Notes under the pieces: model-generated
Database searches by the model: none
Seen by the model: only the letters and a program-made list of their open reading frames with translations
Told to the model about the DNA's origin: nothing
Shown here: positions 48,534 to 54,765 of the stretch, piece by piece
How the letters are laid out: every line of letters begins with the position of its first letter
How positions within the stretch are numbered: the stretch's first letter is position 1
Sequence record: MW822007.1
Reading direction: 5' to 3' (one strand)
Length of the DNA stretch: 64,000 bases
Source: Escherichia phage BF15
Translations under genes and position numbers: made by a program

Positions 48534-48537
48534 CAAT

Positions 48538-48568
48538 GGGGACCGAAAGGTCCCCATATTTTTATTTA
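48538..48568 (+). terminator. terminator after gene 54 (also at 3' end of convergent 96-aa ORF)
   Basis: GGGGACC-GAAA-GGTCCCC hairpin followed by ATATTTTTATTT. Confidence 0.8.
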
Positions 48569-48852
48569 CGGAATGAAATAAAAGCAGCAACTGAAGCAAC
48601 TAAACTGTCTTCAATATAAACTTCAATTTTTACCGGAGCTTCTGACTCAAATTTACCTGTTACTACACCTTGGAAAATGCTTTCAGTCTGTTCTGGCTTT
48701 GAAAAATTTTCAGAAGGAAAAATTCCGAACTTTTTATCTGTTCCAAAAATTTTGATAAATTCATCATAAACTGCTTCATTAAAAGCGTTATCAGCAGGAA
48801 TAACGCCTTCAACTACAAGTTCTTGACCTAAAAAGCGCAAAGAAGATTTCAT
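48562..48852 (-). CDS. hypothetical protein (alt-downstream small ORF)
   Basis: 96 aa ORF with ATG start; own early-type promoter GTTTAC-N18-TATAGT upstream; 3' end inside convergent terminator. Confidence 0.6.
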   Translation of the reverse strand: MKSSLRFLGQELVVEGVIPADNAFNEAVYDEFIKIFGTDKKFGIFPSENFSKPEQTESIFQGVVTGKFESEAPVKIEVYIEDSLVASVAAFISFRK

Positions 48853-48883: not shown

Positions 48884-48913
48884 ACTATAACACAACACGA
48901 GGGACTTGTAAAC
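48884..48913 (-). promoter_or_regulatory. T4 early-type promoter (GTTTAC-N18-TATAGT) for 96-aa ORF
   Basis: Minus strand GTTTAC (48908..48913), 18-nt spacer, TATAGT (48884..48889). Confidence 0.5.
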
Positions 48914-50970
48914 TACATCTTGAACTTTTTAGACATTCCATTGATGTTAACCAAAGAAGCCAAGATTTGAGAAACTTCGTTTTCCTCTTCTTTTGATTCT
49001 TCTACAAGGAATTGATTAAACCCAGCCATTGGACGAACTTCACCAGTTTCCATTAGATGGTCGCCATCATATACCGATTCTTCTAATTGTTCAGAAGGAG
49101 GAACGATTGTGCCTTCGATTAGATACTTGTTATAAGCAGTTTCTTTCATCATGTACGTACTCACTTTATTAATCTTCAGCAAAATTCCACGTGGTAAAAT
49201 AACTTCAGCTTCTGATGGAAATCCTGATAAATGTCCTGGAACGATAACTTTGATTCGCTCAGCTCCTTTAATTACCATACCCACGCTAGTTTCAGCATCT
49301 TCATTGGCATACGCAGAATGACTACCCATATGCATTAAATCTTCAGCGTCAACAGAACCTTCTCCTTCACCAGAAAATACTGCACCGGAATCATCTAGAG
49401 CCATATAGTTTTTACCATACTCACCGAAGATATTTGGTTTAAGCGATGTGGATACGAAGTTCTTGAAGTAGAACATTTTATTTTCAATATTATGACGTAA
49501 AGTTTTAAAGGTAACTTCTTGTCCACGGTAAAGTGTAGTTCCTGGAGGAAGAACTGATCCTTTGGCAAAGGCAGAATCCATTGTCTCGATGTGTTTAATA
49601 GCTCGTTCCATATATTCTTCACGGGTAGAATCCGGTTTACCTAAAAGGAATGAGTTCATTTCAACATATGAATCTGCACAATAATCTTCAATTACATCAG
49701 ACTCAGCCTGAGTTAATCCTTTTGGAGTTACTTCAGTACTTGCATATTCATACGCTTGAGAAGCAGACTCATTAATCAATTTATAAACGCCATTCATGAC
49801 AAATTGAACAATAGCTACCTTTTCATCTGGTGTGGCTTTAGAACCTTTAACTAAATCATTGACAATTTTCTTAATAACATCAAAGCTATTAGAAATATTA
49901 ATGTCAGCAAGATCACTTAAAATTTTATCAGTTTTATAATCAAAAAATTCTTTATTCTTTAAATATTCTTGAGAACCTTGATATGATATATCGCTCTGTA
50001 ACTTGATAGATGGATCACGTAAACGCGCATGAGCCAATGCAATATGATTTCGGAAGCTTTCTAATTCATAATCACTAGATTTAAAACGGGAAGCACTCCT
50101 CATACCACCGATAGCTCCTTTGCTGAAGTTTGAACCAACCTGAATAACGCCAGAGTTCATTGGTCCTTCTGCTTTATATACCGGAACTTTAGATTCAAAC
50201 TCTTGATATTTCTTAGCAGCGAAGCTATCACCCTGAAGTGAAGCATCGACAGTAGAGTATTGAGCTTGTGCTGCTAATCGACGACTAATTTTAGTTTTCT
50301 GAATAACAGCTTGATCCGTGCGCTTATCATTTTCTAAAGCAATAGAAGCAGCAACAGCGACAGCTTTAGGAACAGCATTACCTGTTTTAACGTCTACATA
50401 AACATCACCAACCTTTGATTCAACTTTTGTGAATAACTCAGTTGAAATAGGAGGTACACCTGGAATGTCTTCTAAATTAGCATTTTTACGGTAAACCATA
50501 ATATATGCGTACTTTTTATCGTAATCCCAGATTTCCTTTAAAAGAACATATCGACCTGCTCCTTTAGTACGTACTAAACGGTCGGCAATAACTTGCATTT
50601 GACGAGCTGCACCATTTGTTTTACTCTTTAGTACGCGGAATAAGCATGCGTCAATTTTATACTGTTTCATTGTTTGAAGAGCAGTATCAAAAACGGCATT
50701 AATGACGCCAATTGGATTTCCACCTAAGTTTTTAAGTTTAACTAATGATAGTTTCTCATTAACACCTATCATTACGATATGCATCATTTTATCGCCTGGC
50801 TTAACGTTTTTATTTGTATCACCGCCAGAGGTGTATGTACAAAATCTAAATCCAGGAAGCACACTTTCTTCGCCTGCTTGAATAGCAAAAATTTGAGGTA
50901 TTTTATGCTTAGGATTTAAGTTAACAACCGGCGCCGAAGCGCCGTCAAATAATTCTGTAATAAGTTCCAT
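48913..50970 (-). CDS. Alt-like ADP-ribosyltransferase, paralog A
   Basis: 685 aa (T4 Alt 682 from memory); ART-like R/STS/E motifs (LYRGQ, VSTSL, SEAEVILPRG); N-terminal 240 aa strongly similar to the adjacent paralog. Confidence 0.85.
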   Translation of the reverse strand: MELITELFDGASAPVVNLNPKHKIPQIFAIQAGEESVLPGFRFCTYTSGGDTNKNVKPGDKMMHIVMIGVNEKLSLVKLKNLGGNPIGVINAVFDTALQTMKQYKIDACLFRVLKSKTNGAARQMQVIADRLVRTKGAGRYVLLKEIWDYDKKYAYIMVYRKNANLEDIPGVPPISTELFTKVESKVGDVYVDVKTGNAVPKAVAVAASIALENDKRTDQAVIQKTKISRRLAAQAQYSTVDASLQGDSFAAKKYQEFESKVPVYKAEGPMNSGVIQVGSNFSKGAIGGMRSASRFKSSDYELESFRNHIALAHARLRDPSIKLQSDISYQGSQEYLKNKEFFDYKTDKILSDLADINISNSFDVIKKIVNDLVKGSKATPDEKVAIVQFVMNGVYKLINESASQAYEYASTEVTPKGLTQAESDVIEDYCADSYVEMNSFLLGKPDSTREEYMERAIKHIETMDSAFAKGSVLPPGTTLYRGQEVTFKTLRHNIENKMFYFKNFVSTSLKPNIFGEYGKNYMALDDSGAVFSGEGEGSVDAEDLMHMGSHSAYANEDAETSVGMVIKGAERIKVIVPGHLSGFPSEAEVILPRGILLKINKVSTYMMKETAYNKYLIEGTIVPPSEQLEESVYDGDHLMETGEVRPMAGFNQFLVEESKEEENEVSQILASLVNINGMSKKFKM

Positions 50971-50973
50971 GAT

Positions 50974-53070
50974 TTATCCTTGAACGAACTTGTAAGGCAT
51001 GTTTGCAATATCTATGCAAGATGCAATAATTCCAAGAGATGATTCTACTTTTTGTTTAACATTTGATGAAACAAATGATGCAAAGTCAACTCTGTCTTCT
51101 ATTTCAATATCACCTGTCATTGCAACTACTTCGCCGGTTTCCATTAGACGGTCACCGTCATAAATTACTGATTCGGTGAGTTCTTCCGTAGTCATAACTT
51201 CAGCTTGAATGAGTTTTGTATTATTAGATGTTGTTCCGTCATTATTAGAAGCATCAGTTATTTTATTAACTTTGACCATCAATCCGCGTGGTAGAATAAC
51301 TTCAGCTTCTGTTGCTATTCCGAGACTTCCTGGATATACAACATTAACTTTATGAGCTCCATCAATTGCCCATCCTATTTGAACTTTAACGTATTCAGGA
51401 TTTTCTTTATACGCTCTTATTTCGTTTGGATTAATAGTTATTCCTTCTTCATTTTTATCAACTGTCAATTCATTACGAGCTTCTGGTTCTAAAAGACCAA
51501 TACCAGCATGTGTAATTCCAAAACGTCCAAAAATGATAGGAGTTAAAGAAGTAGATACAAAATTTCTGAAATAGAACACTTTATTTTTAACTAGTGCTTC
51601 GTATATAGGAGCAGTCATGCTTTGAGCACGATAAACTGTAATGCCTTCTGGTATACGGTCACCATTTTCAAAAGCTGAATCTAAATTATTTATCGCAGAT
51701 TCAATTTCTTTTTCACTCATTACATCATATCGTTCTGGATTGTAGCGGCCTAAAAGAAGATTATTGATGTCAGTATATCCTGATCCACAATACTCTCTAA
51801 TGCCGCGCTTTTGCGATGGAGTATATTTAGAACCATCACGGGCAATAGTAATATCAATCATTGGACCTGCACCAATTCCAGAAAAGCTATAAATCATTCG
51901 TTTGAGGAATTTAGTTTTTGCTGCGTTCCAGGAATTTTTAGTTATTTCTTCCCAGACTTCATCTGGCTGCCCTTTACGAGTTTTATTATGTTTATCAAGC
52001 CAATTATCTTTATATTCTTCAAAGAATTTATTAACAGCTGCTGCGTATTTCTCTAAACATTTTATTGAAGTAGTTGGTTCATTTTTGATCGCGTTAAAAA
52101 TTACATCTTTAATTTTTTCAGAAACTTCATCAACCTCACTTTTTGGAAAGAATTTATAGTCATAGTGAAGTTCATCTGCGGTTCCTTCGGCAATGATTTT
52201 TGCTGCCTTAGTTTTAGAAGCTAATGAATTAATTCCAAGCTTCATTTCTTCTGCTTCGGGAATTAAAGGAGCAGTAGCAGGTTTATTGAAATTAGCTGCA
52301 GTAGATTCATACTTCTGGAATAATTCGCTTTCAAATCTAGAAGATTCTAATGATTGACTTTGCGCAATTGCTCTACGGGAAATTTTAACTTTAACAATAA
52401 CAGCTTGGTCAGAACGTTTATCGTTTTCTTGCGCAATAGATGCTGCAATTGCCTCATTTTTAGTTACTTGAGCTCCAGTATCTTTATTGATATAAACATC
52501 GCCGACTTTCGATTCAACTTTAGTAAAGAGCTCGGTACTAATTTCTGGAACTCCTGGAATGTCTTCTAATGATACATTTTTGCGATGTATAAGAATATAT
52601 GCATACTTTTTATCGTAATCCCAGAGTTCCTTAAGAAGGACGTATCTGCCACCTGAACGACTACGGATAAGTCTATCAGCAATAACTTGAATTTGTCGAG
52701 CTTGACCAGCAGTTTTAGACTTAAGAATACGAAGCATGCAGGCATCAATTTTATACTGACGCATCGTTTGCATCGCAACAGTAAAAACTGAATTGATATA
52801 ATTAATTGGGCTTGGACCGAGACCTTTTAATTTAGCAATTGAACCTTTAGCAGTTAATGTAAAAGGAACAATATGCATCATTTTATCGCCCATTTTTAAA
52901 TCACGGTTAGTATCACCTCCAGATGTATAGGTACATAAACGAAAGCCTGGTTGTTCAATTGCGTCATCGACATGAACTGAAAAAATTTGTGGTATTTTCT
53001 TCTTTGGATTTAAGTTTGTAATCGGAAGAGTAGTATCTTCGTCAAATAATTCTGTAATAAGTTCCATCAT
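50974..53070 (-). CDS. Alt-like ADP-ribosyltransferase, paralog B
   Basis: 698 aa; ART-like motifs VYRAQ, VSTSL, TEAEVILPRG; N-terminus MELITELFD... near-identical to paralog A; TATAAATA 21 nt upstream. Confidence 0.85.
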   Translation of the reverse strand: MMELITELFDEDTTLPITNLNPKKKIPQIFSVHVDDAIEQPGFRLCTYTSGGDTNRDLKMGDKMMHIVPFTLTAKGSIAKLKGLGPSPINYINSVFTVAMQTMRQYKIDACMLRILKSKTAGQARQIQVIADRLIRSRSGGRYVLLKELWDYDKKYAYILIHRKNVSLEDIPGVPEISTELFTKVESKVGDVYINKDTGAQVTKNEAIAASIAQENDKRSDQAVIVKVKISRRAIAQSQSLESSRFESELFQKYESTAANFNKPATAPLIPEAEEMKLGINSLASKTKAAKIIAEGTADELHYDYKFFPKSEVDEVSEKIKDVIFNAIKNEPTTSIKCLEKYAAAVNKFFEEYKDNWLDKHNKTRKGQPDEVWEEITKNSWNAAKTKFLKRMIYSFSGIGAGPMIDITIARDGSKYTPSQKRGIREYCGSGYTDINNLLLGRYNPERYDVMSEKEIESAINNLDSAFENGDRIPEGITVYRAQSMTAPIYEALVKNKVFYFRNFVSTSLTPIIFGRFGITHAGIGLLEPEARNELTVDKNEEGITINPNEIRAYKENPEYVKVQIGWAIDGAHKVNVVYPGSLGIATEAEVILPRGLMVKVNKITDASNNDGTTSNNTKLIQAEVMTTEELTESVIYDGDRLMETGEVVAMTGDIEIEDRVDFASFVSSNVKQKVESSLGIIASCIDIANMPYKFVQG

Positions 53071-53090
53071 ATCCTCTCTAGTGTTTATTC

Positions 53091-53098
53091 TATTTATA
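53091..53098 (-). promoter_or_regulatory. late promoter for Alt-like paralog B
   Basis: Plus strand TATTTATA, 21 nt upstream of minus-strand ATG 53070. Confidence 0.65.
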
Positions 53099-53103
53099 AA
53101 ATT

Positions 53104-53121
53104 AAAGGCCCGAAGGCCTTT
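53104..53121 (-). terminator. terminator after ligase / 62-aa ORF (minus strand)
   Basis: AAAGGCC-TTCG-GGCCTTT hairpin on minus strand followed by AATTTTAT; next element is a late promoter. Confidence 0.6.
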
Positions 53122-53308
53122 AATAATCTAGTGGTAAGAGAGTACGATATATTTCAAACTTTGGCCCTTTTTCATAGGCATCAAATGTTTCTGTAAATTT
53201 ATTATAAGCATATGCATCTACAAATTCGAGAACGATTTGTGATACAGAAGTAGAAACATCTCCACCTTCTTTTTGAGCCACGACAATTGTTTCTAAGTAA
53301 GCTTTCAT
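53120..53308 (-). CDS. hypothetical small protein
   Basis: 62 aa ORF whose start overlaps the ligase stop (ATGA coupling); ends in terminator hairpin. Confidence 0.5.
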   Translation of the reverse strand: MKAYLETIVVAQKEGGDVSTSVSQIVLEFVDAYAYNKFTETFDAYEKGPKFEIYRTLLPLDY

Positions 53309-54765
53309 AAACCAGTTACCTCATGAAAATCACCAAATACATCCTCAAATGTATTAGCTTTAGTTTTATCTTCACGTAAACGAATCGCAATCGGAAGAAA
53401 TAATTTAACGTAATCAGTGCGGCCATCAGATTTTAACCAACCATTGCATTCGCACTCTAGAATTTTTCCAATATAATAATTTTGGTTTTCCATAATGCGA
53501 GTACGGTCAAGTTCATGTGATTTTACGCCAGCTTTATCTTTTAAGCCTGAACCTGCATTTACTTTAATTTTTCCACACTCTGATTCAAGAATAAATCCAC
53601 CCGCTTTAGTAGGGTCTTTACGGTGAGGATAAATTCCTACAATTTTTAAATCAACATCAATTACTTCTTTAAATTTATAAAGATTTTTTGAACGAGCATT
53701 TTCCCACAATCCATCGATATTTTTGAGAATAATACCTTCAAGACCTTGGTCAATATACTTTTTATAAATTACCTTAGCTTCATCTAGGTTATTTACTACC
53801 TGGTTTTCAATTAAAATTACTTTATCATATCCTGATGTCATTTGTTCTAGTTTAGAAAAACGTACATCATATTTTAAACGAAACGCCGGAAGACCGTATA
53901 TTTCTACCAACGGAACATAATCCCAGACCTGAAACTTCATGCATTTGGCTTCTTTTTCTGAAATAGTTCCCTTTAAAGATTTATTGGCGATTCCATTAGA
54001 AGCAGTACGAGATTCAGCTACTTCGGCAAACTCTTTAGCTTTACTATTTTCAGGAGCATCAAAAAGAAAATCTAGGCCTTCTGGTTCCTTTTCAACTTGC
54101 TCATGGTATACCAATTCGCCATCGATTAACACGCCTTCTGGATGAATCTGGCGGGCTTCAGCAGTCATTTTGATTAACTCTTCCTTAAGAAGATCTAATC
54201 CTAGGTATTCATTGCCAGCTCGTGATAAAAGACGAACATCATCTAATTCATCACCTCTGACTTCAGCAAAACACCGAGCTCCATCTGCTTTTAACTGCGC
54301 AAAAGCTGGAAACTTGATATTCTTACTAATGCCTTTTTCATCATAAGAACTTGCCAGCATTTGAGGTTGTTCAGGAATTAAACCTGGCCAAACTTTGTTT
54401 GCAATAGATACTGAAGCACCGCATTCAAGGTCTCGCATCATAACTCGACGCAAAACTTCAACATCATCCTTTTTACCATCGGTGATATATCCAGTTAATT
54501 CCTCAATTGCTGCATTGCCAGTTAATTTCCGAGTAGCTAACGTAAATTCAATAAAGTCAAGCATATCGGTAATAGTCAGCATTCCAAAACTCTGGGTAGC
54601 AATACCAGGTTTAGGCCATTTCTTGATATAATACTGTAACCCACGAGAATAAGTCAGACGATATACTCGTTTAAGCAATTCATTATTTTTATTCTTTTCA
54701 AGAATTGCTTGCTTCTGTTTAGTTGATCCAATAGATGCTATTTCATTCAGAATTTTAAGAATCAT
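53305..54765 (-). CDS. 30: ATP-dependent DNA ligase
   Basis: 486 aa; adenylation motif KADGAR; N-terminus MILKILNEIAS... as T4 gp30. Confidence 0.95.
   Translation of the reverse strand: MILKILNEIASIGSTKQKQAILEKNKNNELLKRVYRLTYSRGLQYYIKKWPKPGIATQSFGMLTITDMLDFIEFTLATRKLTGNAAIEELTGYITDGKKDDVEVLRRVMMRDLECGASVSIANKVWPGLIPEQPQMLASSYDEKGISKNIKFPAFAQLKADGARCFAEVRGDELDDVRLLSRAGNEYLGLDLLKEELIKMTAEARQIHPEGVLIDGELVYHEQVEKEPEGLDFLFDAPENSKAKEFAEVAESRTASNGIANKSLKGTISEKEAKCMKFQVWDYVPLVEIYGLPAFRLKYDVRFSKLEQMTSGYDKVILIENQVVNNLDEAKVIYKKYIDQGLEGIILKNIDGLWENARSKNLYKFKEVIDVDLKIVGIYPHRKDPTKAGGFILESECGKIKVNAGSGLKDKAGVKSHELDRTRIMENQNYYIGKILECECNGWLKSDGRTDYVKLFLPIAIRLREDKTKANTFEDVFGDFHEVTGL

Follow-up and report, generated by a model that had tools for sequence, protein, structure and literature searches.

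The DNA considered here is a stretch of 64,000 nucleotides (nt) from Escherichia phage BF15 (MW822007.1), referred to below as the window, and the element in question is a pair of adjacent minus-strand genes, here called A and B, that encode two Alt-like ADP-ribosyltransferases. T4 Alt (gpAlt) is a capsid-packaged NAD+-arginine ADP-ribosyltransferase of 682 amino acids; in this family about 40 copies reside in the capsid, are injected with the DNA, and modify Arg265 of one RNA polymerase alpha subunit as well as other host proteins. An earlier note, made from the letters of the window, had described A and B as adjacent paralogs, the upstream one behind a late promoter, and had proposed that both are injected effectors with different targets. 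The paralogy was confirmed, as both open reading frames (ORFs) are present and their products are 41% identical (BLASTP, E = 5e-163). The genes and the signals that serve them are as follows.

48913..50970, minus strand: gene A (Alt2), an uninterrupted ORF of 685 amino acids with AGGA 6 nt 5' of its ATG.
50974..53067, minus strand (longest ORF to 53070): gene B (alt ortholog), 697 amino acids from the second ATG or 698 from the first.
53098..53091, minus strand: an exact TATAAATA, a T4-type late promoter serving the alt-alt2 transcription unit.
53101..53124, minus strand: an intrinsic terminator hairpin after alt.1, the gene upstream of B, with a 10-bp stem, a UUCG loop and a U-rich tract running into the late promoter.

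The late promoter had been placed 21 nt upstream of B; the exact match is found there, at a distance of 20 nt from the first ATG (53070) and 23 nt from the second (53067). It is the single minus-strand TATAAATA within 48913-53120, and TATAAATA-type sites in the window number 20 against 9.07 expected. The same late promoter element precedes alt in T4, so that B has the promoter typical of the T4 Alt family, with A beginning 3 nt past the B stop codon. The hairpin ahead of the promoter, which also occurs in T4 and JS98, folds at -13.5 kcal/mol (z = -3.25); a pattern-based terminator scan did not return it and direct folding of the RNA confirmed it. Gene B opens with a tandem ATGATG (53065..53070), and the spacing from GAGG is 2 nt to the first ATG and 5 nt to the second. 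In T4 and PP01 the annotated protein begins with MELITE, and Bas37 and RB33-type records annotate the longer form. Given the Shine-Dalgarno spacing and the start annotated in T4 and PP01, the real start of B is probably 53067, which makes the mechanically called ORF one codon too long: the earlier sizes of 685 and 698 amino acids hold for both ORFs as called, and B is probably a protein of 697.

Both products align end to end with PHROG 802 (E = 4.3e-255 for A and 1.6e-272 for B) and match PF03496, the C3/VIP2-type ADP-ribosyltransferase domain (E = 2.4e-20 and 1e-37, respectively). In precomputed annotations PF03496 and PF26846 are recorded on all close homologs, and RefSeq labels both genes "Alt-like RNA polymerase ADP-ribosyltransferase"; an NCBIfam search gave no match for either protein. 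The R/STS/E motifs noticed earlier are present in both copies, namely YRGQ (residues 481-484), STS (507-509) and EAEVILPRG (587-595) in A and, in the 698-residue numbering, YRAQ (480-483), STS (506-508) and EAEVILPRG (588-596) in B. The corresponding catalytic residues are R482, S507-T-S509 and E587-A-E589 in A, and R481, S506-T-S508 and E588-A-E590 in B (R480, S505-T-S507 and E587-A-E589 in the 697-residue numbering). These stand in the order of the R-S-ExE family on an ADP-ribosyltransferase fold in both proteins, and Arg, Ser-Thr-Ser and Glu-x-Glu are invariant in an alignment of 20 family members whose identity to A spans 42-92%. The earlier note had named loss of the catalytic Glu or Arg from one copy as grounds for abandoning its reading; on alignment, Arg and both Glu are kept in both. 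Together with the structure models, these comparisons show that A and B share a four-part layout. The N-terminal domain is conserved and is followed by a helical domain that is hypervariable, by the arginine-specific ADP-ribosyltransferase domain of C3/VIP2 type and by a C-terminal tail, with the following parts.

Residues 1-6 of each protein: N-terminal propeptide MELITE, 100% identical between A and B.
50257..50952, minus strand: N-terminal alpha/beta domain of A, residues 7-238, after MELITE; 67% identical to B.
52351..53049, minus strand: N-terminal domain of B, residues 7-239, after MELITE; 100% identical to T4 Alt and 67% to A.
49726..50256, minus strand: central all-helical domain of A, residues 239-415; 20% identical to B and the most divergent module.
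49087..49725, minus strand: ADP-ribosyltransferase domain of A, residues 416-628; 34-51% A/B identity in the core.
51181..51831, minus strand: ADP-ribosyltransferase domain of B, about residues 413-629 in the 697-residue numbering, placed from Pfam, the invariant columns and the AlphaFold model.
Residues 513-568 of A: insert between STS and the loop that precedes Glu-x-Glu; 17% A/B identity.
Residues 632-685 of A: acidic C-terminal tail; 43% A/B identity.

The high similarity claimed for the N-terminal 240 residues thus takes the form of 67% identity over residues 7-238. The claimed divergence of the central 300 residues is borne out for residues ~239-415 (20%) and for the stretch from STS to the Glu-x-Glu loop (17%), and these do not form a uniform 300-residue block. 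Over most of its length the helical domain of A is modeled as helices with a predicted local distance difference test score (pLDDT) of ~75-92. The top Foldseek matches of the B AlphaFold model are Vis, CDTa, iota Ia and VIP2, and the structural matches of A are the same. A sequence search of the PDB with residues 1-411 of A returned nothing below E = 0.3, and we know of no solved Alt structure. An exhaustive HMMER search of the A central domain against 1.84 billion representatives returned one marginal match of 31 residues (E = 4e-4) and therefore gives no lead to target specificity.

Packaging of both proteins is suggested by their processing sites. Mass spectrometry of T4 virions has shown that the protease gp21 cuts Alt after ITE-6 and LTE-619, which removes 63 C-terminal residues and leaves 68.2 kDa (PMC5694885). 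The two gp21 cleavage motifs, ITE-6 and an L-x-E at ~55-65 residues from the C-terminus, are present in both A and B, and the P1 Glu of both sites is invariant among the 20 family members. Mapping of the sites on T4 Alt returns the measured 68.2 kDa; applied to the pair it predicts a mature A of residues 7-631, cut after LEE (69.1 kDa), and a mature B of residues 7-632, cut after LTE (70.2 kDa). The predicted C-terminal propeptides are given below.

50977..51171, minus strand: predicted propeptide of B, 65 residues after LTE-632, with YDGDRLMETGE; 95% identical to the segment removed from T4 Alt.
48916..49077, minus strand: predicted propeptide of A, 54 residues after LEE-631, with YDGDHLMETGE; homologous to the T4 Alt propeptide.

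In the family alignment Glu631 of A and the YDGD/E/GE positions are invariant, and most of the tail is modeled at pLDDT below 50 in both proteins (residues 629-685 of A and 652-697 of B). The C-terminal DGD.LMETGE motif, which the earlier note had listed alongside the catalytic motifs, does occur in both copies; since A and B keep both T4 Alt cleavage motifs, it falls in the segment predicted to be removed and thus outside the mature enzyme. That the motif is so strictly conserved suggests that it serves in packaging or keeps the enzyme from being active until it is released.

Strong purifying selection maintains both genes. Among the window phage, PP01 and Bas37, the ratio of nonsynonymous to synonymous substitution rates (dN/dS) lies between 0.017 and 0.042 in A and between 0.030 and 0.062 in B. 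Between A and B, in turn, synonymous differences are saturated along the whole alignment, the N-terminal domain included (proportion of synonymous differences, pS, ~0.6-0.7), which, with the same gene order in JS98, indicates that the duplication is old. Gene conversion as the source of the N-terminal similarity was considered and rejected on account of this saturation, identity being limited to the first 28 nt; the similarity is thus attributable to constraint at the protein level. The identical 5' end, given earlier as about 28 nt, is exactly that length (ATGGAACTTATTACAGAATTATTTGACG; 50943..50970 in A and 53040..53067 in B), and JS98 alta and altb do not share such an identity. It may represent a short gene-conversion tract or a constraint at the nucleotide level on the translation start and propeptide region.

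The neighbors of the pair identify the locus.

53120..53308, minus strand: alt.1, upstream of B, 62 amino acids.
53305..54765: DNA ligase gene 30, upstream of alt.1.
48562..48852, minus strand: alt.-3, downstream of A, 96 amino acids (DUF5498, PHROG 1739).

Beyond alt.-3 lie the baseplate genes 54 and 48 on the plus strand, opposite to the alt pair. Comparison of the ORF map with PP01, T4 and JS98 places A and B where the family resides, between gene 30/alt.1 and alt.-3/gene 54, and the locus is thereby the alt region of a T4-like phage, a Tequatrovirus other than T4. Across the 4.9-kb stretch, identity is 97-98% with Yersinia phage ZN18, with the Escherichia phages PP01, NBG2 and KarlGJung, and with others, and at least 80% of it is present in 364 of 544 matching phage records. 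Several observations concern the neighbors themselves. The alt.1 product matches Pfam PF24647 "Phage_blade" (E = 1e-29), and the start of its gene shares 4 nt with the end of the DNA ligase gene. An early-type promoter (TTTACA-17 nt-TATAGT; 48884..48912, minus strand) belongs to alt.-3 and abuts the A stop codon. In the HIDEN-SEQ supplement, bas37_0031, the Bas37 ortholog of alt.-3, is depleted in one comparison of K-12 with a clinical isolate (log2 fold change -2.70, q = 0.02), and alt.-3 may be a conditionally important gene. Finally, between the converging genes 54 (plus) and alt.-3 (minus) lies a GC-rich hairpin of 9 bp that has T-runs on either strand (48536..48557); it probably terminates transcription in both directions and probably marks where the late alt-alt2 transcript ends.

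Gene B is the alt ortholog, given its position next to alt.1 and gene 30 and its 70% identity to T4 Alt. This identity is unevenly spread. At the DNA level B and T4 alt are 96.6% identical over nt 1-723, ~56% over nt ~723-1974 (window 51094..52344) and 97% over the last 120 nt; at the protein level the values are 100% for the N-terminal domain, 32% for the helical domain, 70-80% for the ADP-ribosyltransferase domain and 95% for the C-terminal tail. From this mosaic, B carries a different allele of the effector module between conserved ends, and the catalytic-module allele is that of Bas37, PP01 and RB33, not that of T4. So sharp a mosaic suggests that alt alleles have exchanged the effector module by recombination. 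An origin of T4 alt from recombination between A and B was rejected, because the alignment of T4 Alt follows B over its whole length, whereas its identity to A is only 42%. In a preprint, evasion of Mokosh type I requires T4 Alt, and Bas37 Alt, which has the B allele, cannot replace it (10.1101/2025.11.20.689424).

Gene A is the gene called "ADP-ribosyltransferase Alt2" in the BASEL phage Bas37/KarlGJung (bas37_0032, beside bas37_0033 "Alt"). It is found at 95% or higher amino acid identity in 396 phage records, the next class being below 60%. The earlier note had left it undecided whether T4 holds a second full-length copy at this place, and an arrangement identical to the canonical T4 alt region would have spoken against its reading. 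The arrangement differs. Reference T4 lacks such a copy and has, after alt, the small ORFs alt.-1 and alt.-2, which are entered in its record as a duplicated first part of alt; they occupy a frameshifted remnant of ~360 nt at the position of A. This T4 segment is ~96% identical in DNA to nt 1-348 of A, lacks one A in an A-run near nt 160, which shifts the frame, and then, after a deletion of 1,699 nt between 9-nt repeats, resumes with the last 20 nt of A. The repeats in the window are the following.

50623..50631, minus strand: proximal 9-nt repeat CTAAAGAGT, A nt 340-348, at the start of the T4 deletion by junction comparison.
48924..48932, minus strand: distal 9-nt repeat CTAAAAAGT, A nt 2039-2047, at the other end of the T4 deletion.

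The PHROGs derived from alt.-1 and alt.-2 match A (E = 2e-40 and 3e-38) better than B (E = 1e-21 and 2e-19). Of the 14 substitutions between the remnant and A, 11 are synonymous in the A frame, which points to an alt2 under selection until shortly before its inactivation in T4. By these comparisons alt.-1 and alt.-2 are recognizable as a recently decayed alt2, and T4, in which an A-type gene is frameshifted and deleted, is a natural alt2 deletion mutant. Gene A itself has neither the frameshift nor the internal deletion that mark the pseudogene. The T4-type deletion junction occurs in at least 60 records, among them T4 isolates, RB55, RB59 and ACG-C40.

A mechanism that joins these features can be proposed. 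RNA polymerase with the phage late factors would start at TATAAATA (53098..53091), past the alt.1 terminator, and transcribe B and A together, with A translated from its own ribosome-binding site 3 nt past the B stop. Both precursors would enter the prohead core and be trimmed by gp21, N-terminally behind ITE-6 and C-terminally behind LTE-632 in B and LEE-631 in A, giving mature enzymes of ~70 kDa (B) and ~69 kDa (A). Ejected with the DNA, both would ADP-ribosylate arginines of host proteins in the first seconds of infection. Because divergence is greatest in the helical domain and the active-site loops, these would most likely be different sets of host proteins, modified in host takeover or against host defense. 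The locus is thus probably a late operon of alt (B) followed by alt2 (A), both encoding injected ADP-ribosylating effectors that most likely have different targets. The reading of the pair as two such effectors, the best one and sound on the sequence evidence, is supported indirectly, by conserved protease sites, purifying selection and hypervariable modules. Different substrates are also argued for by the HIDEN-SEQ result that alt alleles are not interchangeable against Mokosh and by transposon data on Alt and Alt2. In the same preprint, Alt2 is "Intermediate" in a Bas37 transposon library (116 of 164 TA sites, mean count 44.5), as against "Non-essential" for Alt (164 of 179 TA sites, mean count 203.6) (10.1101/2025.11.20.689424). 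This suggests that disruption of Alt2 costs Bas37 more fitness on E. coli K-12 than does disruption of Alt; the searchable main text of the preprint yielded no comment on Alt2 (10.1101/2025.11.20.689424).

Several points weigh against two injected effectors with different targets. First, the minus-strand scan of 48913-53120 found no consensus late promoter belonging to A, so that expression of A depends on read-through from the B promoter. Second, the quality reached by the structure models is moderate (mean pLDDT 74), and sequence divergence by itself is no proof of different targets. Third, Alt2 is dispensable on laboratory hosts, given that T4 and the other records with its deletion are without it. 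Fourth, the literature search found no paper characterizing Alt2, nor direct evidence of its expression, packaging, processing or activity; searches on paired alt genes, altA/altB and virion mass spectrometry found nothing relevant.

Among the alternatives, the one that survives best, although we regard it as unlikely, is that Alt2 is a redundant back-up that modifies the same targets as Alt (e.g., RNA polymerase alpha) and is kept for dosage or robustness. Alt and Alt2 do have the same architecture, catalytic motifs and structural matches, their N-terminal domains are 67% identical, and T4-type phages survive without Alt2. A redundant copy is nonetheless hard to reconcile with an old duplication in which each copy has stayed tightly conserved (A at 95% or higher in its 396 records, with the next class below 60%) while identity between the copies drops to 17-20% in the helical domain and active-site loops; moreover, even two alt alleles do not substitute for each other against Mokosh, and Alt and Alt2 differ in their tolerance of transposons. 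Less probable still is that Alt2 is made late but remains unpackaged and acts in the producing cell or in head assembly, as A keeps the MELITE propeptide, the C-terminal L-x-E and the YDGD..ME.GE tail that flank the mature virion protein in T4 Alt. A further alternative, in which A is decaying or has lost its catalytic activity, as the frameshifted and deleted remnant at this position in T4 and many relatives might lead one to expect, is already contradicted by its intact 685-residue ORF, its Arg, Ser-Thr-Ser and Glu-x-Glu, and its dN/dS of 0.02-0.04, and is very improbable.

It should be noted that the pair was known before. Hundreds of genomes have it annotated, under the names Alt/Alt2 or alta/altb, and, being the standard annotated alt/alt2 pair of most Tequatroviruses, it does not constitute a discovery. 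What goes beyond the annotation is the recognition of alt.-1/alt.-2 as a deleted alt2, of cassette-like alt alleles between conserved ends, and of a conserved C-terminal motif within the predicted propeptide. The comparison with A corrects the description of alt.-1/alt.-2 in the T4 record. Knowledge of injected ADP-ribosylation comes almost entirely from T4, a natural alt2 knockout, whereas an intact and tightly conserved alt2 is present in about four-fifths of sequenced Tequatrovirus records. The helical domain differs both between the paralogs and between alt alleles. A wider proposal, which we advance tentatively and as a whole, is that the virion delivers Alt2 as a second effector, which has host targets of its own and possibly neutralizes a defense system or toxin; that its loss in the T4 lineage contributes to the differences of T4 from other T-even phages in host range or sensitivity to defense; and that the helical domain is an exchangeable cassette for target recognition. 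If Alt2 indeed has its own substrates or counters defense, a missing early step would be added to the model of host takeover, with bearing on the choice and engineering of therapeutic T-even phages.

Compared with known systems, B resembles T4 Alt in its locus, late promoter, terminator, motifs and near-identical ends, and differs in the diverged middle part; A is 42% identical to T4 Alt. The closest counterparts of A are found at the same place in related phages: it differs at 11 amino acid positions from Alt2 of Bas37 (bas37_0032) and at 3 from the unnamed second Alt-like gene of PP01, and it is the second "Alt-like RNA polymerase ADP-ribosyltransferase" of NBG2, ZN18, Shfl2 and others. It shares its position with T4 alt.-1/alt.-2 but lacks their 1-nt and 1,699-nt deletions. 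Tandem full-length pairs are also known at greater distance. JS98 (Dhakavirus) and IME08 carry alta and altb in the order 30 - alt.1 - alta - altb - alt.-3 - 54, although altb is only 48% identical to A and the two JS98 genes do not have identical 5' ends. Phage 44RR has a similar pair in alt and ORF187c; its full-length alt duplicate has been reported, with T4 alt.-1/alt.-2 listed among paralogous duplications of alt (Nolan et al., 2006). Two Alt-like paralogs that are 43% identical have been described in 6phi13 and SHFML-11 in a 2026 paper. Finally, relative to the R-S-ExE toxins C3, VIP2, iota, CDTa and Vis (PF03496), the phage proteins have a ~410-residue N-terminal extension, propeptides predicted to be removed by a protease, and a long insert between STS and the loop that precedes Glu-x-Glu, and they would be delivered from the phage head rather than through a toxin pore.

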